Notes: a model not told the origin generated them from the sequence alone. A stretch of 64,000 nt of DNA from Thermoplasmata archaeon (GCA_020348445.1 CP070751.1:96001-160000); one strand, 5' to 3'; shown: positions 3,001 through 64,000, counted from the stretch's first letter. A program made the numbers and translations.

Positions 3001-6000
3001 TTACTGTAATGTTATGAATGCCATCAATTTGTGGAGGTAAGGTATAGGGGCTATCTTGCGTAGAAAATGGACCGCTGTTGATGGATACCTCATAATGGTC
3101 TATACCACTTGTATCATCTGTAGTTATGAATGTAATTATGGGTCGTGTATTATTGGTCCAATTTGCAGGATCTGCAATGGGTGTAAATGAATTTGGAGGC
3201 GTTGTATCCACTGTAAAGTTCCAGGCAATGCTGTACTGTGACCAGTCACCATCACTATCATTGGTACGCACTTTCCAGTACCAGGTACCGTCGGCAATTG
3301 TCGTGTATCCTGTGCCTGACGGGAATGGCCAAGTTGGGTTTGCAGAGCTCTGCTGCCCGCTGTCGTAGTCTATGCTGCCAAATCCGATATCATCATCTAT
3401 TACAACCTGGAAATCGGCCTGGGTGCTGTCTGAATCCATGAACATCCAATTGAAACTCAGTGTGTTAATTGTGGTTACAAGATCATTTGTAGGATCAATT
3501 AAACTGGGCGGGCCGGGAATCAAATTATATTGTATGGTCACATTATGCAAAATCGGTAAAAAGTCTGTGTCGCTTGTGCTTAAATAAGCCTTATATTGGA
3601 ACCATTGCTCTCCGTTGTGCCCCGTCCAGATATTTGTTCCTGATAATGTATAAAAGCTTAAGGAGGTCCCATCAGGCCCTACAAAGTTCTTGGTAGATAA
3701 GCCGCCTTGCGTTGCCGCGGACCTTAATTGAAATTTAATTTTCGTATTTACTGGGGTTGTCGCAATCCAGTTAATTGTCCGCCATGATGCTTCACCACCA
3801 GAATCGTACGGCTCTGATTCCAATGTACCTGATGAGAAGTTTTGTTGGTATGAGAGATTTATATTCCTGAGAACTGCTGTATCTATTCCATCAGAGGAAA
3901 AATTGACACGATAGTAAAAATTAGAACCGGACCAACCTAATGAGGTGAGATCAATGATATTAGTACCTCCTGACAAAGTATCCCACATGTTTATAGAACC
4001 TGTTGAATTGCACCAATTAATACTATCTTGTGAAAATTGCATCTTAATATCAGTTCCAGAGGGCTTAACAGCTTTGTATGTAAAATTATTGATTGATAAT
4101 GCTTTATTCCCCATAAGTAGGTTATTGGATATTATCTCACCCCATGATGAATCAATTTTAACTAGCCAGACATCATGACTACCAGCACCATAAGAACCTG
4201 TTTCACCAGTGAATATATACCCATTGTCAGTGGTTTGCTGGACTGAATAACACATTTCATGTTTACTTCCCCCGAAAAATTTAAACCATCTCTCATTACC
4301 CAAAGAATCGGTTTTAATAAGCCATGCATTAGAATAAGGTGTACCGATACCATATGAGGATGTACTACCAGCGATAATATATCCACCATCTGAGGTCAGC
4401 TGGACTGAGTGACAATAATCATTAGCACTCCCGCCAAAGGACTTGTTCCATAGTTCTTTACCCAATGAATCAACCCGAACTAGCCAACCATTAAAATAAT
4501 TTGGAGTACCGATACCATAAGATGTAGTGGTACCAGCGATAATGTAGCCGCCATCTGAGGTCTGCTGAATGGATTCACCCCGTTCACCCGCACTTCCACC
4601 TAAGGTTTCGTTCCATTCCTCTTTACCTGACGAATCTGTCTTGATTAGCCAAACATCAGGCCAGCCTGGACTAAAAGAGTCTGTCTCCCCAGCAATAATA
4701 TAACCGCCGTCAGTGGTCTGTAAGACCGAATAACCACGATCAGTCATACTGCCTCCAAAAGTTCTATTCCATTGCTCATTTCCTGACGAATCTGTTTTAA
4801 TAAGCCAAAGATTCTCCCAAGGTGGACCAAAAAATGTTCTAACGCCAGCAATAATATAACCGCCATCGGACGTTTGCTTGACTTCAAATCCTTGATCATC
4901 TCTGGTTCCTCCGAAAGTTTTATACCATTGTTCATTTCCTGATGAATCGGTTTTAATCAAATAGACATCCCATCTGCCAGCACCGTAAGAATCTGTATAA
5001 CCAACGATAATGTAACCCCCGTCAGAGGTCTGATGGACATCGAATCCTTCGTCTTCACCATTTTCTCCGAAAGTTTTATGCCATTGTTCATTACCTAACG
5101 AATCTGTCTTGACTAAAAAGACATCATTGGATACACCACGGTAAGAGCCAGTAACAATATATCCACCATCTGAAGTTTGATCCACTGCTTTACCATAATC
5201 ATAACCGCTTTCACCAAAAGGTTTACTCCAGCTCTCAACACTTCCCGAATCAACCTTTATGAGCAACACATCGTAATCACCGGCACCATACGAGTTTGTA
5301 TAACCAGTAATGATAAAACAATTATCAGAGGTTTGTTGAACTGATTGACCAAAATCACTCATAGCACCACCAAAAGTCTTATCCCAAATCTTAGCACCTG
5401 AAGAATTGGTTTTAATCAACCAGACATCAAAATCGCCAGCACCATAAGATAATGTATAACCAGCGATGATATAATCACCATCGATAGTTTGTTGAACTGA
5501 AAAACCTGCATCGCTTGAGCTGCCGCCGAAAGTCTGATTCCATTGCTCATTACCTGATGAATCGGTTTTAACAAGCCAGACATCCCAACTACCAGCACCG
5601 TAAGAGTTTGTAAGACCTGTCATAATATAGCCATCATCGGAAGTCTGCATAACTGATTTACCATATTCTGTACCAGTTCCACCGAAGGTTCTATTCCATT
5701 GCTCAATACATAATGAATCTGTCTTGATTAGCCAGAAATCAAAGCTACCACCCTTAACAGTTTCCCCCGCAATAATATAACCACCATCAGAAGTCTGCTG
5801 GACAGAATAGCCTGCATCACTTGAAATCCCGCCGAAGGTCTTGTTCCATTGCTCATTACCCGATGAGTCTGTCTTGATAAGCCATACATCATAGCCACCA
5901 GCACCGTAAGATGAAGTTTCGCCTCCAATTATATAACCACCGTCAGAGGTTTGCTGAATTGATCTGCCAAAATCCCAATTACTCCCTCCAAAGGTTTTGT

Positions 6001-55024: not shown

Positions 55025-55152
55025 AGCGGGGTGGGGTAGCCAGGAAATCCCGAGGCATCTACCATAACCTCTTCGTATCATGCCTTGAGGCCTGATATCC
55101 CGACGGGCTCATAACCCGTAGATCGATAGTTCAAATCTATCCCCCGCTACCA
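55025..55152 (+). tRNA. tRNA-iMet (CAT) with a 50-nt intron in the D-loop (55047-55096) and encoded CCA
   Basis: A1-U72 acceptor AGCGGGG/CCCCGCT; anticodon stem ACGGG/CCCGT with three G-C pairs; loop CTCATAA; T arm GATAG-TTCAAAT-CTATC; CCA end. Removing 55047-55096 gives a normal 78-nt archaeal initiator tRNA. Confidence 0.93.
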
Positions 55153-55271
55153 ATTATTTATTTCTTATAATCATCCTGTTTCTAATGAAATGTTGTTGGA
55201 AGACAAAATAATTTCTTAAACTTTGAAGGGATGAAAGGCAATTTTAAATCACCCATATTCTCCTTTCATCC

Positions 55272-55329
55272 GAGTGCGAAGTTATAATTAGACGTCGAAT
55301 GGTTCTTAAGCTTCGCACTCCCCCGCTAC
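55272..55329 (+). repeat. tRNA-linked hairpin unit U1
   Basis: GAGTGCGAAG-TTATAATT-N13-TTCTTAAG-CTTCGCACTC followed by CCCCGCTAC (the tRNA-iMet 3' end). Confidence 0.85.
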
Positions 55330-55364
55330 TATAATCATTATATAATTAGAATCGCAGCGTGTCA

Positions 55365-55418
55365 GTCGATGTTAAGTTGGTACGTTAGTTGATTCTTAAG
55401 CATCGACATCCCCCGCTA
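55365..55418 (+). repeat. tRNA-linked hairpin unit U2
   Basis: GTCGATG-TTAAGTTG-N13-TTCTTAAG-CATCGAC, then ATCCCCCGCTA (the tRNA-iMet 3' end). Confidence 0.85.
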
Positions 55419-55429
55419 TCTTCAATAAT

Positions 55430-55467
55430 TTCTTAAGATTCACGATCCTCCTCTACTATAATCATTA
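55430..55467 (+). repeat. Degenerate half unit
   Basis: TTCTTAAG-N10-CTCCTCTA-CTATAATCATTA, with the same spacing and 3' flank as U1. Confidence 0.65.
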
Positions 55468-55857
55468 AAACTGATTGGTATCAAGATTTAATGATTCGTC
55501 ATCTGGGTCGATTCTGTGAAGTACGTTTTTCCATACAATTTCAGATACGATCTCTGGTTTCAAATTTCCACTGGCCCAGCGCTCAATATCTTCTAAAGGA
55601 GGCTTGTACCCATAATATTTCTCTGCAACGTGAATCAGATCATTGAGCATTTGGTTCACAAAAAACTCACTGGTAATCACGATTTCGCATTCTGAAAGCA
55701 TCTCAATGGGCGGTTTTCCCTTTTCCCGGGGGACGGAAGTTGCCAAACTCTCAAATAAAAATCTAATCCTGCCTTTTTCAAAGGTGCTGACCTTAACAGC
55801 CGAAGGATATATTACCCTAAAGATAGGACTTCTTTTTGTATCCAATTTTATCTCCAT
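55465..55857 (-). CDS. Hypothetical protein (130 aa)
   Basis: ORF track; GGTGA RBS upstream; no recognised motif. Confidence 0.7.
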   Translation of the reverse strand: MEIKLDTKRSPIFRVIYPSAVKVSTFEKGRIRFLFESLATSVPREKGKPPIEMLSECEIVITSEFFVNQMLNDLIHVAEKYYGYKPPLEDIERWASGNLKPEIVSEIVWKNVLHRIDPDDESLNLDTNQF

Positions 55858-55900
55858 TAAATCACCTACTCCACATTCTTTTATCGCTTTATGTATGTTT

Positions 55901-56104
55901 CTATCTTGGTCTATACTTCTCCATCCTATTAAGTAATATTCTAAGATCGGTTTTTAAGGGTGTGTCTGATTTGGCCATCAAATCATTTACAGCCACAACC
56001 AATCCTTCTATACTATTTTCCTTATGCCCATCCAGGAATTCCTTGATCGTCTTCGGATCGGAAAGATAGGGTAAAACCTCTTCATACAAATCATCTACGT
56101 TCAT
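55901..56104 (-). CDS. Hypothetical small helical protein
   Basis: ORF track; ATG at 56104 (MNVDDLYEEV) with plausible composition. Confidence 0.6.
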   Translation of the reverse strand: MNVDDLYEEVLPYLSDPKTIKEFLDGHKENSIEGLVVAVNDLMAKSDTPLKTDLRILLNRMEKYRPR

Positions 56105-56149
56105 GACACCCACAACCAACCCGATTTACCTTGCCAGACTTCCTTTAAA

Positions 56150-57577
56150 TCAACTCCCATAGAATGCATTATATCCCTGGTGAGTTGCATACAAATCGGC
56201 CTTGCTCGCGATCTCAAATGGGGCATGGAGGCTGAGCACGGCAGGACCGCAGTCCACTACCTCCATGTTGTGCTCTGCCAGGAATTTCGCGATGGTTCCA
56301 CCACCACCCTCGTCTACCTTTCCCAGCTCTCCGGTTTGCCACGGAACCTTTTTCTTGTTGAAAAGGCGCCTTATCTCGCTGATATATTCTGCGTTGGCAT
56401 CGTTTGACATGTATTTCCCTCCAGAACCAGTGAATTTCGTAATAACAAGGCCATAGCCAACTTTGGGCGCGTTTTTGATCTCATGGACATCCTTGTAATT
56501 GGGATTCACACCCCCGGTAACATCTGAGGACAGGGCTTTGGATTTGGACAGGGCCTTTCTAAGCATACTGTATCTATAATCGGGATCTTTCAATTCCATG
56601 AGTTCACCGATTAGGGTTTCCAAAAATCGGGAACGAACAGCGGTATTGCCTTCGCTTCCTATCTCCTCCTTGTCAAAGAAAAGAGCTATTGCTGTCCTCT
56701 TCGGCTTCTTTTGTGCAGCTATTGCGGTCATGGAAGCATAGGCACAGATTCGGTCATCCTGGCCATAAGCTCCGATCATGCTTTCATCGAAGCCGATATC
56801 TCTGGGTCTTCCTGCTGGTACGATTTCCAACTCTGCGGTTGTGAAATCCTCTTCAACGATTCCGTATTTCTTGTTAAGATGATCAAGCACCCACAATTTG
56901 ATCTTCGATTTTGCTTTATCATCCTTTACAGGAACGCTTCCTACGAGCACGTTCAGTTCCTCTCCTTTTATCCCTTCCGACAGTCTTCTTTTGGCCTGTT
57001 TCCCTCGATAAAGATGCGGTTCCAAGTCTGTTATTGTAAAGGCTGGTTCATCTGGATCTTCACCGATTATTATATCCACTGCCTTGCCATTCCCCTTTAC
57101 AATATGACCGTGCACAGCCAAAGGCTGATTGACCCATTGATATTTTTTTATGCCGCCGTAGTAATGGGTTTTAAATAAAGCCAGCTTCGTGTCATCATCC
57201 TCATATAGAGGATTCTGTTTAAGGTCCAGGCGAGGTGCGTCGATATGAGAGGCTATGATGTTAATGCCGTCTTCTATGGGCTCGGAACCCAAAACAATTA
57301 ACGCGATGTTCTTGTTGCGGTTGGTGATGTAGATCTTGGTTCTTGGTTTGGAGCCTTTGATCTCATCAATGCTCTTAAAACCGTTTTTTTCGGCGAATTT
57401 TATGATCTCTGCCACGGCCTCCCTTTCGGTTTTAGCCTTGGCAAGAAAATCCTTATAGCCTTTTGAAAACTCGAAAACTGTTTTCTTCTCCTTCTGGCTG
57501 AGTTTGTCCCACACCAGCTCATGTTTTCTGGTCAGCTTCTCCTCTAACTTGGATTTTTTATCGTTCTTTTTAGCCAT
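56150..57577 (-). CDS. M18-family aminopeptidase (aspartyl aminopeptidase-like)
   Basis: SHIDAPRLDLK, YYGGIKKYQW, QDDRICAY, DKEEIGS, SSDV and LHAPFE metal-ligand motifs. Start moved to MAKKND. Confidence 0.93.
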   Translation of the reverse strand: MAKKNDKKSKLEEKLTRKHELVWDKLSQKEKKTVFEFSKGYKDFLAKAKTEREAVAEIIKFAEKNGFKSIDEIKGSKPRTKIYITNRNKNIALIVLGSEPIEDGINIIASHIDAPRLDLKQNPLYEDDDTKLALFKTHYYGGIKKYQWVNQPLAVHGHIVKGNGKAVDIIIGEDPDEPAFTITDLEPHLYRGKQAKRRLSEGIKGEELNVLVGSVPVKDDKAKSKIKLWVLDHLNKKYGIVEEDFTTAELEIVPAGRPRDIGFDESMIGAYGQDDRICAYASMTAIAAQKKPKRTAIALFFDKEEIGSEGNTAVRSRFLETLIGELMELKDPDYRYSMLRKALSKSKALSSDVTGGVNPNYKDVHEIKNAPKVGYGLVITKFTGSGGKYMSNDANAEYISEIRRLFNKKKVPWQTGELGKVDEGGGGTIAKFLAEHNMEVVDCGPAVLSLHAPFEIASKADLYATHQGYNAFYGS

Positions 57578-57715
57578 TTTTGCCCCCCTTGGTGCTAAGG
57601 GCAAAAGTTGTTGGATATTAAGTAATTTTCTATATTGTTATCCAGAAAGATGGTGAGGACTTGCCAAGTACAAATCTTTAAAAAAGCGGATAGCAATTAC
57701 CTTTGGGGTTTTAAA

Positions 57716-57898
57716 ATGAAAAAGATTGCATTGGGTGAAACGTTGCCCATTGAGATTACCGAGGTTACGGAGGTTGAGGGAAAAGATAAGTTCAAGGTCG
57801 TATTCCAAGATGATGATGGTTTTGAGGGGACTCTTTATCTCGATGTGGAACTCCCTATAGGTGCGGCCGAGCTTAAGATCGTCCATAAGGAAGAGTGA
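57716..57898 (+). CDS. Small hypothetical protein (60 aa)
   Basis: ATG at 57716 within the tracked ORF; beta-rich, protein-like composition. Confidence 0.55.
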   Translation: MKKIALGETLPIEITEVTEVEGKDKFKVVFQDDDGFEGTLYLDVELPIGAAELKIVHKEE

Positions 57899-57962
57899 TT
57901 CAAGGAAAGGGTGGTGAAAAGAAAGATTTAAAAGTCCCTATGGCTATAATAAGGTGATAAAT

Positions 57963-58130
57963 ATGGCTGATAGCGAATTCACAGGTAAGATCTTGATTAA
58001 CGATGGTAAAAAGACGGTGACTGTCAATATAACTGGAAAATCAGAGGAAGAGCTTTACGAAATCTTCACATTCATGAGAAAGATGAAAAAAGATCCAGGA
58101 AACTACTCGATAAATCTTAAAATCGATTGA
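57963..58130 (+). CDS. Small hypothetical protein (55 aa, below the ORF-track cutoff)
   Basis: MADSEFTGKILINDGKK...SINLKID*, preceded by a GGTGA RBS (AAGGTGATAAAT-ATG). Confidence 0.6.
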   Translation: MADSEFTGKILINDGKKTVTVNITGKSEEELYEIFTFMRKMKKDPGNYSINLKID

Positions 58131-58341
58131 TATCAGAGCTTGTTTAAAGCTCACACTGTTTTGAAAAGTTTTATCTATCATATTAGATATCATGCTGGAT
58201 ACGAAACTTGTTTGATTCATATAGAGTCGCACATTTGCTATGTAGCAATGTGTGATAATCGCAAATGTGTCCTACCGTGGCAGGCAAGCTGCCACTTAGT
58301 CGCATAATTGCTATGCGATAATATGATATAATCGCAATTAT

Positions 58342-58436
58342 GCTCCCGTAGTGTAGCCCGGCCAATCATTTTGGCCTCTCGCGGTCTTTTCGGCTGGAGA
58401 AAGCCAAGGACACGGGTTCAAATCCCGTCGGGAGCA
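58342..58436 (+). tRNA. tRNA-Glu (CTC) with a canonical 20-nt intron at 37/38 (58382-58401); CCA not encoded
   Basis: Acceptor GCTCCCG/CGGGAGC; anticodon stem TTGGC/GCCAA; T arm ACGGG-TTCAAAT-CCCGT; strict BHB with central helix CTCT/GGAG and bulges CGC and AAA. Confidence 0.95.
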
Positions 58437-58461
58437 CTTATATTTAATTTTGATTTGATAC

Positions 58462-58534
58462 GTGCTCCCGTCTCGTGTTTGAGTTATAATTTCATAATGC
58501 TGAGTTCTTAAGCTCAAACACCCGTCGGGAGCAC
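58462..58534 (+). repeat. tRNA-linked hairpin unit U3
   Basis: GTGCTCCCG-TCTC-GTGTTTGAG-TTATAATT-N13-TTCTTAAG-CTCAAACAC-CCGT-CGGGAGCAC; the right arm contains the tRNA-Glu 3' end. Confidence 0.88.
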
Positions 58535-58735
58535 CCTATATTATGTAATTTTCGAGCGGGCGTAGGGGAGGTTTCTTTTTAACCCATTTTTTTCTTTGCC
58601 GACCCGAAGCCATCGTGGTGGACAGGAATTAAATTTAAGAGATACCTGTCCTCCACTAGGTAGTGGAAAACATTTATAATATCAAGGGGAATGTTTCCAC
58701 AACAGCGAAGAAAATTACCTCAAAGAAAAAAACGG

Positions 58736-58767
58736 AGCTCAAACACCCGTCGGAAGCACTTATATTT
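58736..58767 (+). repeat. Third copy of the tRNA-Glu 3' end (attR-like direct repeat)
   Basis: 58746-58767 matches 58424-58445 at 21/22 nt, including the non-tRNA flank CTTATATTT. 58736-58759 matches the U3 right arm at 23/24 nt. Confidence 0.85.
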
Positions 58768-58927: not shown

Positions 58928-61900
58928 ATGTGGGCTAAAAAGTCAATTTACGTGTCCAACCAATCAATGAAAATTCGGAAAAAAAGTGCTTTAAGACCAT
59001 CAAAAAAGAGAACAAATTTTAAACATCGAATTTTTTCAATATTCACTATACTGGCCCTGATGTTGGGGGGAATGGCCTCTATTTTCCCGATTCTCATCCC
59101 GGAAAGCCTGCCAAGCGCAAGTGGTACGATCATCAGAAGTATCTTTTTCGACGATATGGAGGCAGGAGGCCCAGCGGCCCTAGGACAATGGCGCACTCAA
59201 GATGCACTTCTTGTGAGGCCTTCTCAACCAAGTGCAAGCCAATGGGAACTGGGAACACCAACGCCACCACCTAATGCCTATTCACCTACAATTTGCTGGG
59301 GTACCGAATTGGGAGGGGCGTATTATAGTCCTTCTGAATATCTATTAATAACTCCAACCATCGATTTGACTACAGAAGCAATATTGAGTGCACAATTATC
59401 CTTCTGGCATACCTATTCCTTCTTCCAAAATGATGGAGGTTGGGTAGAAGTAAACCCTATGGGCTTCATGGTCGGAGATATCATCCATCCTGAGGGTGGT
59501 TACCCTGGTCACGTTTTCAGTCCACTAGGGATGGGGGGCTCAGGATATAACGGTTCAAATAGTGGATGGGAGCAAGCCATATTTGATCTATCAGAATATA
59601 TAGGCCAAACGATAAGAATTGGATTTAGATTCTGTGGCTATAGCGGAGATATGATTTCCCGAGGATGGTACATCGATGATGTATCAGTGGATAATGAGTG
59701 GTTCGACGGACCAAAGATTGGGCCAGATCAAACCAAAGCCGGATTTGGAGGAGATACCCTATCATACACCCTTACAGTCACCAATTACAACATTGTAGAC
59801 GACTATATTGATACCCATTACACGGACACAAATAATTGGCAGGTACGTATACTCAATGCCACAACCCTTCTTCCACTACAGGATAAGGGGGGTACACTTG
59901 GATTGCCTGACGTATATCTATCTCCCATGGAATCAGAGAATATAATTGTACAAGTTACGATTCCAGCAACCATAGATGATTGGGATATATCTGATACGAC
60001 CATAATATATGCTATTTCATTTGATAATCCCATGAACCAGGACACAGCAGAACTGATCACCAAAACTCCATGGCCCGATGTTGGTATCAGCAAAATCGCA
60101 TTACCCAGTATAAAAAAAGTTGGCGATACGATAAACATCATCGTCACAGTAAAAAACTATGGGGATTGGACAACTTCTTTCAATGTTGAGGGTTTACTAT
60201 CTGCCATGCTGATCACTCCACCCTCCACGCAAGAACCTACATTACAATACATATCAAATCTCAAACCCAACGAGACCATTGATTTACAATGGAGTTTTAT
60301 ACCTACTGTCTCATGTGAGTACACATTTTCCGCAACAACGTTACTTGACATCGATCAATTTGTTTATAATAACAAATCCGTAAAAAGCATACTGGTTCAA
60401 GAGATGCTGTGGATGGATGACATGGAAAGTGGGGGAGATGCCGCCAATGGATTATGGACCCACTTCATCGATTCCGGCTCTTCCTCCACAACGGATTGGG
60501 AATTGGGAGTACCGACATGGCTCTCTGGCCCCTCTCCCAGCAGTGTGCCCTCACTGCCGAATTGCTGGGGCACCGATCTTAGCTATGCATATGCGGAGGA
60601 TACTGATTGCTACCTATTCACCCCTGCATCGTCAGCATTCGATTTTAGAGGATTTGACGAGATAGTCTTGGCTTTCTCTCACTGGTGGAGCCTACAATCC
60701 ACCACCACTCACGGTGAAGATGTTGGAATGATCGTTTATACATTCGATGCAGATCCAATTTCCACCATGTACATCACAGGAATTGAATTTAATACGAATT
60801 CAAATGATTGGGAGCGCGAGGAAATCGATATGACACCTTTTGTAAAGGATGAACCATATGTGAGATTCGGCTGGAGACTTTTCGAAGATATAGGGGGTAA
60901 TAAATTCGAGCATGGGATATGGCCTGGATGGTATATGGATGATGTTGCGGTATGGGCCAAGCCTGCCAGGCCTGAAATCATTATTACCGAATTAATGGAC
61001 AGCGGAGGTAATGAATATTTAGAGGTTTTCAATTGCGGATCCCAACCTGCAATTCTTAGTGAGTACGGTATAACTCTTGATATGGGTAGCACATGGTTGT
61101 CCTCAGGCACTTGGGGTGCTCCTTTTCTTTCACCTAATGGCCACACTTACTACAATATTCCTGCAGGTCTCGATGATCTCGATAATCAAGGTGAGACAAT
61201 CAGCATAGTAAATAGATCCATTATTGAAGGATTGATAACTGACCAGATATCATACGGTCAGAAGGGCACCGTTCCTGATCCATTACCAGGGGAAAGTGCG
61301 GCAAGATATTGGGACGGAAGTAAGTACAAGAACGAGTGGGCCAGGGATAGCTCCCCAACCATTGGTTTTCAGAACGATGGGCAGGGCGAGGTTGACTTCA
61401 AATATGTCGTTCTAAACGAGGTTCTCTATAATCCCGGGATAATTGAGGCTTTCATTGAATTAAGATATGTGGGTTATCCAGGAAATGAACCTGATATCGA
61501 TGTTTCTGACTGGATTTTAGTTGTGGGTGATTCTGTATTTACAATACCTGCTAGTCCATTCAGTACGATACTCAACTTAAAGAATCCATTTTATGTGGTG
61601 AACGAAGGTATGTTCCCGGGTTTATTTGGTACTACTGATGTCGATGGCGACAACATTTATCTTTACACTGACTCAGGTTTATTTGTAGACGAGGTTGGAT
61701 GGAACCTCCCGCATGCACCTGATACTTCCATCTCAAGGGTCCCTGACGGATTTGGCGTGAAGCTGGGTTTTAAACAACATGGCCTCATGGGATATGACGA
61801 TCCAAGTTCCATTGCAGCAGGTTGGCAATTCGGAAGGACACCCAGCATGTCTATAGTTGCAATCGAGGCAGATCAAAATGGAGTGGGAGATGCAGAATGG

Positions 61901-64000
61901 ACCGTGATTTATGATCTAAACGTCACCAACCATCAGGATGTTGCTGATTATATAGATCTAATTTTCACACCCCCAAGTCCCGGTTGGATCATTGAGTTCT
62001 ATGCTGCAGACAATGTTACATTACTGTTAGACAATGATGGGGATGGGGTAATAGACACTGGCCTTCTTCCCGCGAACTCAATTATGTGGATCAAGGTAAA
62101 GATAACACTCCCTGCTGAGCATATCGGTGATTTTGAAAAAACTGTAATCACGGCACGATCATCACAGAACCTAAATGGTTGGGATACAGTTACCCTTATC
62201 ACTGAAACTTATCCCCATATCGAGGTAAATAAATCATCAAGCAGAAATGAAATTTGGCTTAATGGAACGGGTATGTTTCCACAATCTACAACAATCGAGC
62301 TTGAAATCAGGGGTTCGGGACTTGCCCAATCTATTACGTTTCCCCAGGATGTCGTCTTCTGTATTGACAGTTCCGGCAGTATGGCCCAGAACGACCCAAA
62401 AGATTTACGCAAAGATGCCGCCAAGTCCTATGTGGATGATATGAGAATTCCTGATAGAGGTGCTGTGGTTGATTTCGATGATAATGCTATATTGGTAGGA
62501 AACGACCATTTGGATTCTAATTACGTTCAAATAAAGAACAACATAGATAAAATCGATTCCGTAGGTGGGACAGCCATTGGTGCTGCTTTGAAGCTGGCAA
62601 ATGATGAGCTCATAGCAAATGGTGATCCCACACATATCTGGATTATTATTCTCATCACAGATGGTTTAACTGGGGATGAGGCCCTATGTTACGCAGAAGC
62701 GGATAGAGCAGCTGAAAATAACATAAAGATATACACCATCGGTTTGGGGAATATGGTGGACGAAGACCTCCTTACGGACATCGCTGAAATCACTGGGGGT
62801 AAGTATTATCCCGCACCTACTCCTGAGTACCTTGCGGGCATATACTACGACATTAGAACCCAAACATTGAACATTGCGGGAAAAGACTTGGTTGCTGGTG
62901 ATAACGTCTATTTTGTTAGGGATGTACTACCTCCATGGATAGATCTTATTCCTGGAACCTTCAATGTCGTTCCAGATAACATTACCGTTGATACAAATGG
63001 GTATACTATAATGGAGTGGGAGGTGGAAAGGGTTTTTATTGGCGATACCCTGACCTACAGTTTTGAGGTGGTATCCAACCTCCCAGGTCTTGTGCAAACC
63101 AACTTCGTTTCAGGTTCAAGGGTTAGGTATGTCAAATGGACTGGTTCCGAAGTTGAGGAACTTTTCCCTGAGGTTTTGGTGAATGTTTTGCTGGGACCAG
63201 CAATGCCACCTCGGCTTTCTGCAAGGGCGCAGGGAGATGATGTTCAGCTTTATTGGATTCCTCCACAGACAACTGGAATCCATCATTATCTCATCTATAA
63301 GAGTCCAACACAAACCGGCTTTGATTTCTCAGATGTTTGGGTGAACACATTACAACTTGATGATAATGGCATAATACCCACCCGAACCACCTGGAACATT
63401 ACGAATGCAACACGAGGACTTTACCCAAAAGAGGAGTACTACATCATAAGAGCTGTAAACCAAATAGGAGAAAAGAGTGTGACAAGTAATACCGCGGGAA
63501 AATGGACAAAAACATTCTACCAGGGAGTGAACACATTCTCATTGCCTTTAGAGCCATCCGAGATTAAAACAACGGAGTGGTATACAAATAATATTCCAAA
63601 TTGCAAATACATTAAATGGATGGATGAAACCACACATACTTGGATCAAACACGATCTTGGAGAGGGATTAGGTATAGATGACTCTGAAATTGTTGTGGGG
63701 AAAGGTTATGAAATCTCTGTAGCATCAAATAGTGTATATACATTTTGTGGATACCCAGGCGCTCATATTAGGTATACCGAGGAGGAGCTTCCTGCTCCAT
63801 CCAATTTTGCAGTAAATGTAATCAACGATTTTGGAGATGTAGAACTTACATGGGATCCAGTACCTGATGCTGATCATTACATCATTTACAAATCAGGCAC
63901 CAGGAATGGGCTAAATGATCTTACCCTATTTCCTTTATGGGAGACCACATACGGCGATCCAATGGATACCTCTTTTATAGATTATAATGCCGCCTACTTC
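58928..64000 (+). CDS. Large surface/adhesin protein (>1691 aa, runs off the window): two MAM/cleaved-adhesin-like beta-sandwiches, CARDB-like Ig, two lamin-tail-like domains, vWA domain, FN3-like domains
   Basis: Not in the ORF track (no stop in the window). ATG 58928 follows GGAGGGGGG; the frame is consistent at 62363 and 63962. Motifs: WELGTP..CWGT and GWYIDDV (twice), IIITEL and VLNEVLYNP, MIDAS IDSSGSM...GGTAIG...ILITDG...IYTIGLG. Confidence 0.88.
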   Translation, partial: MWAKKSIYVSNQSMKIRKKSALRPSKKRTNFKHRIFSIFTILALMLGGMASIFPILIPESLPSASGTIIRSIFFDDMEAGGPAALGQWRTQDALLVRPSQPSASQWELGTPTPPPNAYSPTICWGTELGGAYYSPSEYLLITPTIDLTTEAILSAQLSFWHTYSFFQNDGGWVEVNPMGFMVGDIIHPEGGYPGHVFSPLGMGGSGYNGSNSGWEQAIFDLSEYIGQTIRIGFRFCGYSGDMISRGWYIDDVSVDNEWFDGPKIGPDQTKAGFGGDTLSYTLTVTNYNIVDDYIDTHYTDTNNWQVRILNATTLLPLQDKGGTLGLPDVYLSPMESENIIVQVTIPATIDDWDISDTTIIYAISFDNPMNQDTAELITKTPWPDVGISKIALPSIKKVGDTINIIVTVKNYGDWTTSFNVEGLLSAMLITPPSTQEPTLQYISNLKPNETIDLQWSFIPTVSCEYTFSATTLLDIDQFVYNNKSVKSILVQEMLWMDDMESGGDAANGLWTHFIDSGSSSTTDWELGVPTWLSGPSPSSVPSLPNCWGTDLSYAYAEDTDCYLFTPASSAFDFRGFDEIVLAFSHWWSLQSTTTHGEDVGMIVYTFDADPISTMYITGIEFNTNSNDWEREEIDMTPFVKDEPYVRFGWRLFEDIGGNKFEHGIWPGWYMDDVAVWAKPARPEIIITELMDSGGNEYLEVFNCGSQPAILSEYGITLDMGSTWLSSGTWGAPFLSPNGHTYYNIPAGLDDLDNQGETISIVNRSIIEGLITDQISYGQKGTVPDPLPGESAARYWDGSKYKNEWARDSSPTIGFQNDGQGEVDFKYVVLNEVLYNPGIIEAFIELRYVGYPGNEPDIDVSDWILVVGDSVFTIPASPFSTILNLKNPFYVVNEGMFPGLFGTTDVDGDNIYLYTDSGLFVDEVGWNLPHAPDTSISRVPDGFGVKLGFKQHGLMGYDDPSSIAAGWQFGRTPSMSIVAIEADQNGVGDAEWTVIYDLNVTNHQDVADYIDLIFTPPSPGWIIEFYAADNVTLLLDNDGDGVIDTGLLPANSIMWIKVKITLPAEHIGDFEKTVITARSSQNLNGWDTVTLITETYPHIEVNKSSSRNEIWLNGTGMFPQSTTIELEIRGSGLAQSITFPQDVVFCIDSSGSMAQNDPKDLRKDAAKSYVDDMRIPDRGAVVDFDDNAILVGNDHLDSNYVQIKNNIDKIDSVGGTAIGAALKLANDELIANGDPTHIWIIILITDGLTGDEALCYAEADRAAENNIKIYTIGLGNMVDEDLLTDIAEITGGKYYPAPTPEYLAGIYYDIRTQTLNIAGKDLVAGDNVYFVRDVLPPWIDLIPGTFNVVPDNITVDTNGYTIMEWEVERVFIGDTLTYSFEVVSNLPGLVQTNFVSGSRVRYVKWTGSEVEELFPEVLVNVLLGPAMPPRLSARAQGDDVQLYWIPPQTTGIHHYLIYKSPTQTGFDFSDVWVNTLQLDDNGIIPTRTTWNITNATRGLYPKEEYYIIRAVNQIGEKSVTSNTAGKWTKTFYQGVNTFSLPLEPSEIKTTEWYTNNIPNCKYIKWMDETTHTWIKHDLGEGLGIDDSEIVVGKGYEISVASNSVYTFCGYPGAHIRYTEEELPAPSNFAVNVINDFGDVELTWDPVPDADHYIIYKSGTRNGLNDLTLFPLWETTYGDPMDTSFIDYNAAYF

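Follow-up and report, generated by a model that had tools for sequence, protein, structure and literature searches.

Folded DNA palindromes that serve as recombination or insertion sites are known from integron attC sites and the attP(+) site of CTX phage, whose targets are attI or dif, and from the ends of IS200/IS605 elements with their relatives, the PATEs and the REP/REPIN sequences. tRNA genes are landing sites of another kind: in classical integration, the crossover falls in the T-loop or anticodon loop and the insert is kilobases long and encodes its integrase. Behind Escherichia coli tyrT there are 178-bp tandem repeats, each of which carries the last 19 bp of tRNA-Tyr. Here we describe a short hairpin module that lies behind tRNA genes of a Thermoplasmata archaeon (GCA_020348445.1). 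It was first seen in a 64,000-nt stretch of the genome (CP070751.1:96001-160000; hereafter the window), where an earlier note had described three units, U1 and U2 after tRNA-iMet and U3 after tRNA-Glu. Their coordinates, sequences, 29-nt loops, TTA loop starts and perfectly paired stems (10, 7 and 9 bp) were all as that note gave them, and in each of them the right arm does lead into a repeat of the upstream tRNA's 3' end. The interpretation we prefer, and to which we give about an even chance, is that the units represent a DNA module, restricted to this genus, non-coding and non-autonomous, for which the 3' part of a tRNA gene is the site of recombination or insertion and which acts by way of folded single strands.

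Extent, tRNA association and architecture of the family

We compared the 5.16-Mb genome containing the window (G000) with four genomes of the same genus (G001 to G004, of which G001 is complete). A strict pattern scan of G000 returned eight copies of the unit, seven of them just downstream of a tRNA gene on the same strand. After the pattern was relaxed, stems were present at 55 of 789 loop-pattern matches, compared with 12 of 1948 in the reversed genome and about 5 expected by chance. Forty-nine copies were aligned, and the covariance model built on them matched 67 sites in G000 and 27-46 in each of the four other genomes; the further copies that the earlier note proposed to look for do exist, and many of them too lie beside tRNA 3' ends. 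The same model matched nothing in 146 genomes representing 65 other genera of the class.

A search of approximately 185,000 species genomes with the exact consensus pattern found it only in metagenome-assembled genomes (MAGs) of this genus, which are labelled Thermoplasmata or Methanomassiliicoccales archaeon. Fifteen metagenome contigs were matched, often at contig ends, and the pattern was absent from 2.9 million viral contigs. The proposal that the units are new was also borne out: they are unmatched in Rfam, where only tRNA matches were returned at the gathering threshold and at E<=1, they lack the R boxes of attC, and literature searches yielded no description of such elements. Papers on Aloposons mention integration at tRNA sites beside giant genes, but without hairpins of this type. 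The hairpin module is, in sum, an undescribed repeat family confined to one genus.

Forty-two of the 67 matches in G000 lie no more than 700 nt downstream of a tRNA gene (about 0.45 expected by chance), and 26 of the 49 dispersed tRNA genes are involved. Several "orphan" units follow intron-rich tRNAs that tRNA finders miss, and in the complete genome G001, too, units are linked to tRNA genes. In about 20 cases in G000, the first unit begins 31-39 nt past the tRNA. Units and tRNAs are co-oriented in 38 of the 42 cases, and this 38:4 bias shows that the polarity of the unit matters. On the genome scale, units occupy the plus strand in 18 of 22 matches at 0-2.3 Mb and the minus strand in 33 of 45 beyond 2.5 Mb (orphans included). 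The GC skew of the genome gave no usable replication origin or terminus, and a replication-strand bias was rejected; the switch to mostly minus-strand units at 2.5-4.8 Mb follows tRNA orientation. Separately, there is a dense block of approximately 21 tRNA genes covering most amino acids (genome 4640570-4643566, minus strand); none of its genes carries a hairpin unit, and the array may have been imported with a virus or a large mobile element.

A module is non-coding, approximately 85-100 nt long, and ordered as T, spacer, T', CTTT, stem, loop, right arm, T2. T is part of the tRNA itself, namely the 3' strand of the T-stem plus the 3' strand of the acceptor stem. The spacer (23-25 nt) is AT-rich and has a consensus of its own, and this compact layout is common to about 20 loci. 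T' repeats the last ~10 nt of T exactly, in inverted form, along with 1-4 flanking bases that are not part of the tRNA, and it pairs with the discriminator as well. After the pyrimidine bubble, CTTT, comes an inner stem of 9-12 bp with a bulged G and the arm consensus rTGTTCGAG/CTCGAACAy, closing a 29-nt loop in which the columns TTA...CTTAA are invariant in all 49 aligned copies (the window units end TTCTTAAG). The right arm, CTCGAACAy, resembles a T-loop (TTCRAAT). It is abutted by T2, a second, displaced copy of the tRNA end that begins at the T-loop/T-stem boundary in all loci; T and T2 are direct repeats, evident at the 12-mer level within 80-470 nt at approximately 30 tRNAs.

The inverted copy is matched to the tRNA rather than to the displaced repeat. 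The longest perfect helix averages 9.3 nt for T':T versus 6.3 nt for T':T2, and locus by locus the upstream T is the better partner in 15 cases, the two are equal in 4, and T2 is better in none. T2 therefore decays like a displaced relic, and because T' pairs with the tRNA's own end, a rebuilt acceptor stem is not the general fold. The two-arm rod envisaged by the earlier note, in which the unit recreates that stem, accordingly applies to U3, whose T2 is intact, and not to the family as a whole. T' does not copy the tRNA 5' strand; at tRNA-Ala, for instance, A-T takes the place of G3.U70. A further ~12 "C-type" copies, situated away from tRNAs, read X, GTGGCCTAT, 23 nt, ATAGTCCAC, CTTT, hairpin, X', and keep only a C-rich 9-nt direct repeat at their two ends; these end repeats place the crossover just 3' of the right arm.

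Pairing, turnover and the search for an enzyme

An RNA helix that evolves through many double changes is expected to be rich in G.U pairs. In the 49 aligned copies, 8 of the 12 pairs of the inner helix show double-sided changes, and the helix is 95.6% paired, a figure that is partly a product of construction because the scan required stems. Of 441 stem pairs, 412 (93%) are Watson-Crick, 3 are G.T, 10 are A.C and 16 are other mismatches, even though the scan scored G.T as a pair and should have favoured stems that contain it. Given this near-absence of G.T despite many double changes, the stem of the module looks like a DNA palindrome rather than an RNA helix. Structure is conserved above sequence, with the qualification that the stems are less free than was supposed and follow the arm consensus. 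At four loci, moreover, the loop lies flipped with respect to the tRNA, with spacer and flanks in their usual orientation and the full loop consensus on the other strand. Loop inversion is the expected result of recombination or template switching across inverted arms, and it would destroy an RNA motif.

Comparison among the five genomes revealed turnover at orthologous sites. Upstream of tRNA-Glu, synteny is preserved in all four sister genomes at ~75% identity; downstream of the array it stops in every one. There is one unit at this tRNA in G000. G001 has an orthologue of U3 that is 93% identical over 117 nt including the spacer (versus 73-77% for neighbouring genes) and an additional hairpin insert that lies between the copies of a 22-nt duplication beginning in the T-loop. 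G004 also has one unit, with one compensatory stem change and a T2 that tracks G004's own tRNA variant, and the orthologous site in G002 has none. The size of an array at the same tRNA varies between genomes from 1 to 6 units.

The clearest trace of movement comes from a related MAG (CBDUXN010000034.1, ~4800-5000), in which an intron-containing, tRNA-Pro-like body is chimeric from the T-loop on. From that point it reads tRNA-Trp 3' end, Trp-type spacer, T' and unit; the gene's own 3' end, displaced, comes next, and an intact tRNA-Pro(GGG) with its own array lies beyond. A module of the Trp type thus lies within a tRNA gene to which it is not cognate, and the T-loop/T-stem boundary is where both junctions fall. 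Mis-assembly is an unlikely source of the chimera, since the junctions share only ~10 nt of sequence and have Pro-type context on either side.

Could the units instead act as RNA? They might form part of a pre-tRNA 3' trailer, as a processing or termination signal or a regulator that pairs with the 3' strand of the acceptor, or be independent small RNAs transcribed from a promoter in the AT-rich spacer, with arrays produced by tandem duplication; we think this unlikely, yet it accounts for several observations. It would explain why nearly all tRNA-linked units are co-oriented with the tRNA and why the first unit stands at a near-fixed distance and is kept at the same tRNAs across species that are ~75% identical, whereas the missing unit at tRNA-Glu of G002, the 23 of 49 dispersed tRNAs without units and the ~12 C-type copies remote from any tRNA are difficult to fit. 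Strong conservation of the Glu spacer and unit between G000 and G001, and of the loop ends in 49 of 49 aligned copies, is likewise what a functional RNA would display, but the flipped loops present their consensus on the opposite strand, G.U pairs are near-absent, T' pairing runs beyond the tRNA end without keeping the G3.U70 pair of tRNA-Ala, and decay affects T2, which such an RNA would include. To judge by its letters, the spacer consensus (TTTTATATTAAATT) resembles a T-run terminator combined with an archaeal TATA box, which would put a transcription start near CTTT or the first base of the stem. Also opposed to an RNA are the TTATG starts of 30 of the 49 loops, which would make poor TATA boxes, and the lack of any Rfam match to the units.

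Several more specific ideas were examined and set aside. A promoter in the loop was rejected as the main explanation on the same TTATG starts, and a bulge-helix-bulge splice motif because the 3x3 or 4x4 internal loop, read by eye, does not fit the 3-4-3 geometry. A tRNA-like or acceptor-minihelix RNA, in which the acceptor helix would copy the tRNA 5' strand and leave discriminator and tail free, does not fit T', which complements the 3' strand, replaces G3.U70 with A-T in Ala, and pairs with the discriminator and flank; the tRNA-mimic small RNA that the earlier note had offered as its alternative is disfavoured on these grounds, on the few G.U pairs and on the decay of T2. We favour a DNA module over a tRNA-mimic RNA on the basis of the Watson-Crick stems, the loops flipped in place, the copy-number differences between genomes and the Trp-type module in a non-cognate tRNA.

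A second alternative holds that the units are attL-side leftovers of ordinary large viruses or plasmids that integrated at tRNA genes through double-strand att sites and a tyrosine integrase, and whose bodies were then deleted. Inserts bracketed by direct repeats of the tRNA 3' part, and synteny that breaks at the arrays, are in keeping with such a history. However, about 20 loci share the layout with the 23-25-nt spacer, which independent random deletions would not produce, and the earlier suggestion that the units are scars of larger elements fits poorly for the same reason. The target-matched inverted copy T' is alien to classical attP arms, and the viral contigs contain no match. Fragments of integrase genes do occur: Phage_integrase (PF00589) is represented in G000 only by two C-terminal fragments, at tRNA-Leu(UAA) (genome 1864225-1864380, plus strand) and at tRNA-Met (2412539-2412649, minus strand), and sister genomes have 2-7 such genes, full integrases among them. 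Yet both fragments are beside tRNAs without units, and no integrase adjoins any unit. One locus could be read as a remnant of a larger insertion, with a unit ending in a 16-nt copy of the tRNA-Val 3' end 3.8 kb from that tRNA and ABC-transporter genes between. Overall we regard such relics as improbable.

Several observations concern these same loci. The two integrase fragments show the pattern left by SSV-type integrases that are split on integration, and the one at tRNA-Leu(UAA) is adjoined by an rve-type integrase-core open reading frame (ORF) and by a 342-aa Y1-HUH+HTH ORF. The tRNA-Val(GAC) interval (L084, genome 1266097-1270151) encodes a MacB/FtsX-type permease and an ABC ATPase, and is possibly a cargo-carrying version of the module; a near-duplicate of its unit-bearing segment is found at 3594900-3595150. 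Flanking of cargo genes, which the earlier note had raised, is thus limited to this one possible 3.8-kb case, the other modules being 85-100 nt long and devoid of ORFs.

The search for an enzyme covered tyrosine recombinases and HUH nucleases, the two classes for which the earlier note had proposed to look; no specific member of either adjoins the units. Y1 HUH transposases give 5-17 matches in all five genomes, but units were not found flanking Y1 genes, and no RAYT-like gene is flanked by units. The 342-aa Y1-HUH+HTH protein was rejected as the mobiliser because it lacks conservation within the genus and the complete genome G001 does not encode it. We also rejected the idea that the hairpin is a tiny miniature inverted-repeat transposable element going back to a longer one that shares its ends, since TTAT...CTTAAN arm pairs 36 nt to 30 kb apart do not exceed chance. 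Of the resident IS200-like sequences, two identical 661-bp copies (genome 2860309-2860969 and 3338969-3339629) each run into N-masked sequence, and a pair of adjacent Y1 transposase genes (4214534-4215446), with equivalents in G001-G003, lies beside a PIN-domain gene in G000 without recognisable IS ends.

A number of results weigh against a mobile module. No integrase, HUH or other protein family recurs among the ORFs within 3 kb of the 67 matches, and the end hairpins of resident IS200 elements are unlike the unit. Neither Cas1 nor reverse transcriptase was found in G000, of which ~35 kb is masked so that a gene's absence there is not proof; a casposon-type or retro-element origin was rejected on this finding, with the same proviso. 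No free, circular, plasmid or viral copy of the module turned up in the data searched, circular forms being among what the earlier note had proposed to look for. A strain-level pair of empty and filled sites with both flanks kept was not found, the nearest sequences being ~85% identical, and the sole chimeric tRNA stems from a metagenome assembly. Changes in array size could also arise by unequal crossing-over without transposition. Hairpin integrity is no lower with distance from the tRNA, leaving a model in which the newest unit is nearest the tRNA unsupported. Lastly, the persistence of the first unit at the same tRNAs in species ~75% identical could mean a host function.

The last point would suit a third alternative, that of a non-mobile, cis-acting DNA element of the host that spread by gene conversion between tRNA loci and acts as a cruciform barrier or protein site, shielding tRNA genes from integration or organising replication or transcription there. 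It agrees with the DNA-type pairing and with the retention of the first unit at many tRNAs in all five species. Both tRNAs that bear integrase fragments are without units, as shielding would predict, but two tRNAs are a tiny count. The unit in a non-cognate tRNA, the half units and the orphans look like by-products of recombination, and no candidate binding protein is known. We consider a host element of this type decidedly improbable.

We return to the module as a recombining DNA. The earlier idea of a tRNA-targeting recombination system acting on folded single-stranded DNA gains from the DNA-level signs, the tie to tRNAs and the empty orthologous site, and is left without a linked recombinase. 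In the mechanism we envisage, the module would fold as single-stranded DNA into a stack of two hairpins, T:T' and arm:arm, with a CTTT/CCCN bubble between them. An enzyme that recognises hairpins, most likely a tyrosine recombinase or a Y1 HUH transposase like those of IS200/IS605 or RAYT type, would cut beside the bubble and join the module to the tRNA gene; the joining would keep the tRNA intact by supplying a replacement 3' end and push the old 3' end downstream, which would build arrays. T' might either guide the reaction by pairing with the target or be corrected by template switching against the constrained tRNA end; the 9-11-nt, tRNA-specific paired segment suggests pairing-directed targeting or continual correction of T'. 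The first of these, base-pairing-guided insertion of single-stranded DNA, would make T' a 9-11-nt guide that sits beside a protein-binding hairpin and directs an HUH or tyrosine enzyme. This specific proposal is speculative and on balance doubtful. Equally doubtful is its corollary, that T' pairs with the exposed 3' end of the tRNA gene and that the guide has been naturally re-set to at least 26 tRNAs.

If the module is mobile, it represents a new use of tRNA genes as landing sites, by a gene-less element of ~100 nt that arrives with a new end for the tRNA and with its target sequence in inverted form. It would also be a natural, re-programmable, pairing-directed form of DNA insertion in archaea, with a long target segment, one per tRNA; were the guide proposal true, the module would give archaea a DNA-borne counterpart to the short guides of IS200/IS605 and of bridge-RNA recombinases. 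Should it turn out to be a host device or an RNA, the module still distinguishes over half of the dispersed tRNA genes in a little-known Thermoplasmata lineage from sediment, and it is the reason that assemblies break, and synteny is lost, at tRNA loci.

The tRNA-iMet and tRNA-Glu loci

Features of the two loci in the window are listed below. The sequence copied in the iMet units is the final ~11 nt of tRNA-iMet (ATCCCCCGCTA). The nearest stem to that of U2 belongs to the single iMet unit of G001, and that genome has this one unit at a locus with two and a half in G000; the half unit is followed by the same flank as U1 (TATAATCATTA), and forms an 84% repeat with 55303-55340. The "type B" hairpin that abuts U1 is kept at the orthologous iMet locus of G001 and has further copies behind tRNA-SeC, tRNA-Gly(GCC) and one other tRNA; the outer helix of this hairpin family is T-loop/T-stem sequence (GGGATTCG/CGAATCCC).

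At tRNA-Glu, the reverse complement that forms T' covers the tRNA 3' end, including the discriminator, and the next C. The DNA fold of 58424-58540 consists of two adjacent hairpins, T:T' and arm:arm, in which T' pairs with the tRNA's own end. The stem of U3 is the same in its G001 orthologue and differs by the one compensatory change in that of G004. After the third tRNA-end copy, the sequence continues with TTATATTTT, the same start as that of the spacer behind the tRNA.

Features of the tRNA-iMet and tRNA-Glu loci (window positions; bits of units are covariance-model scores)
Feature	Position	Strand	Details
tRNA-iMet gene with intron	55025-55152	+	aragorn with introns (mislabelled); Rfam tRNA 55089-55149, 28.7 bits
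Unit-loop 3'-end remnant, stemless	55208-55219	+	ATAATTTCTTAA; repeat identical to 55425-55436
Type B hairpin	55228-55271	+	GGGATGAAAGG, 23-nt loop, CCTTTCATCC; abuts U1
U1	55272-55329	+	10-bp stem GAGTGCGAAG 55272-55281, 29-nt loop 55282-55310, second stem 55311-55320, then iMet 3'-end copy CCCCGCTAC; 45.6 bits; DNA fold z -2.5
U2	55365-55419	+	7-bp stem GTCGATG 55365-55371, 29-nt loop, CATCGAC 55401-55407, then tRNA-end copy ATCCCCCGCTAT; 49.5 bits
Half unit	55430-55456	+	loop end TTCTTAAG, right-arm-like ATTCACGAT, degenerate tRNA-end copy CCTCCTCTAC
tRNA-Glu(CUC) gene with intron	58342-58437	+	3' end T = CCCGTCGGGAGCAC; Rfam 48.1 bits
AT-rich 24-nt spacer	58438-58461	+	family consensus TTAAnTTTTATATTAAATTnATAC; 22/24 identical in G001
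T' and left bubble side	58462-58474	+	T' GTGCTCCCG 58462-58470, then TCTC; inverted repeat
U3 inner hairpin	58475-58521	+	GTGTTTGAG 58475-58483, 29-nt loop 58484-58512, CTCAAACAC 58513-58521; TTA/TAA pairs, one bulged G; 61.7 bits
T2	58522-58534	+	direct copy of tRNA-Glu 3' end, CCGTCGGGAGCAC; direct repeat
Non-coding hairpin-rich insert	58535-58735	+	~200 nt, from T2 to third tRNA-end copy
Third copy	58736-58759	+	right arm and tRNA-Glu end AGCTCAAACACCCGTCGGAAGCAC; 23/24 to U3

Other features surround these loci. A giant ORF with VWA, lamin-tail and MAM-like domains (window 58928-64000+; more than 1690 aa, running off the end of the window) begins 170 nt past the tRNA-Glu array, at a place where the genes differ in each sister genome. 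On the other side of tRNA-Glu, 58225-58342 contains (CC)GTGG...CCAC hairpins with a 45-nt direct repeat (58225-58269/58298-58342). Genome-wide, conserved (CC)GTGG-N6-22-CCAC hairpins are found no more than 120 nt upstream of 11 of 50 tRNAs (22% versus 2% background), and a CCGTGG...CCAC hairpin is present inside T-loop introns too. An intron of ~45 nt (GCCCGTGG...CCAC...GGCTCGG) that interrupts the T-loop is nearly identical in three different tRNAs or tRNA-end copies (genome 668238-668392, minus strand; ~2879700-2879860, plus; 5100360-5100440, plus), which suggests a mobile tRNA intron; its host tRNAs are missed by default tRNA finders.

Comparison with known systems

Like attC and CTX attP(+), the module is an imperfect palindrome with an unpaired bubble and an extrahelical base, its structure is conserved above its sequence, and its arrays accumulate at one chromosomal site; the folded CTX attP(+) further resembles it in imitating the chromosomal target. 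The differences lie in the target and at the outer ends. The module addresses a tRNA gene instead of attI or dif, with an outer helix specific to each tRNA, and where attC has RYYYAAC/GTTRRRY boxes at its outer ends, the module has the tRNA-specific T' and T, its invariant TTA...CTTAA being at the ends of the loop. An integron array lies beside an integrase gene and attI and its cassettes usually contain an ORF, whereas modules are 85-100 nt long and mostly gene-less, and no link to an integron integrase or to Xer was found.

With IS200/IS605 ends, PATEs and REP/REPIN sequences the module shares its form, that of ~100-nt non-coding hairpins in tens of copies, and its strictly DNA-type palindrome with a bulged base. 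At the IS200/IS605 left end, a guide 5' of the hairpin foot pairs with a site at a fixed distance of ~20 nt upstream, an arrangement comparable to the module's T, 24 nt, T', CTTT and hairpin. Those guides, however, are 4-5 nt long and the same in all copies, whereas the module's segment has 9-11 nt and differs for at least 26 tRNAs; IS200/IS605 insertion makes no target duplication, whereas the tRNA end is duplicated over 11-16 nt in the module. In REPIN-RAYT and other IS200-derived systems the ends or flanks of the Y1 transposase gene carry the same hairpin, which is not so here despite Y1 genes in all five genomes.

Classical tRNA integration provides a third set of likenesses: junctions at the T-loop/T-stem boundary, incoming DNA that restores the tRNA and displaces the old 3' end as a direct repeat, and tandem accretion of elements. 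Its kilobase inserts have as their counterpart a gene-less insert of ~85 nt that contains a conserved hairpin and repeats the target in inverted orientation. Casposons, which have Cas1, terminal inverted repeats and a 14-15-bp duplication, are similar only in duplication length (11-16 nt in the module); there is no Cas1 in G000 and the ends of the module are not inverted repeats. The tyrT repeats, like the module, are tandem units behind a tRNA that each end in a copy of its 3' end, but they are known from a single locus and species, and are not known to include a hairpin family common to many tRNAs or an inverted copy. The module thus works most like attC and CTX attP on the one hand and IS200/IS605 and REPIN on the other, yet it departs from each in the very properties that define it, and we file it as a structured palindromic miniature element.

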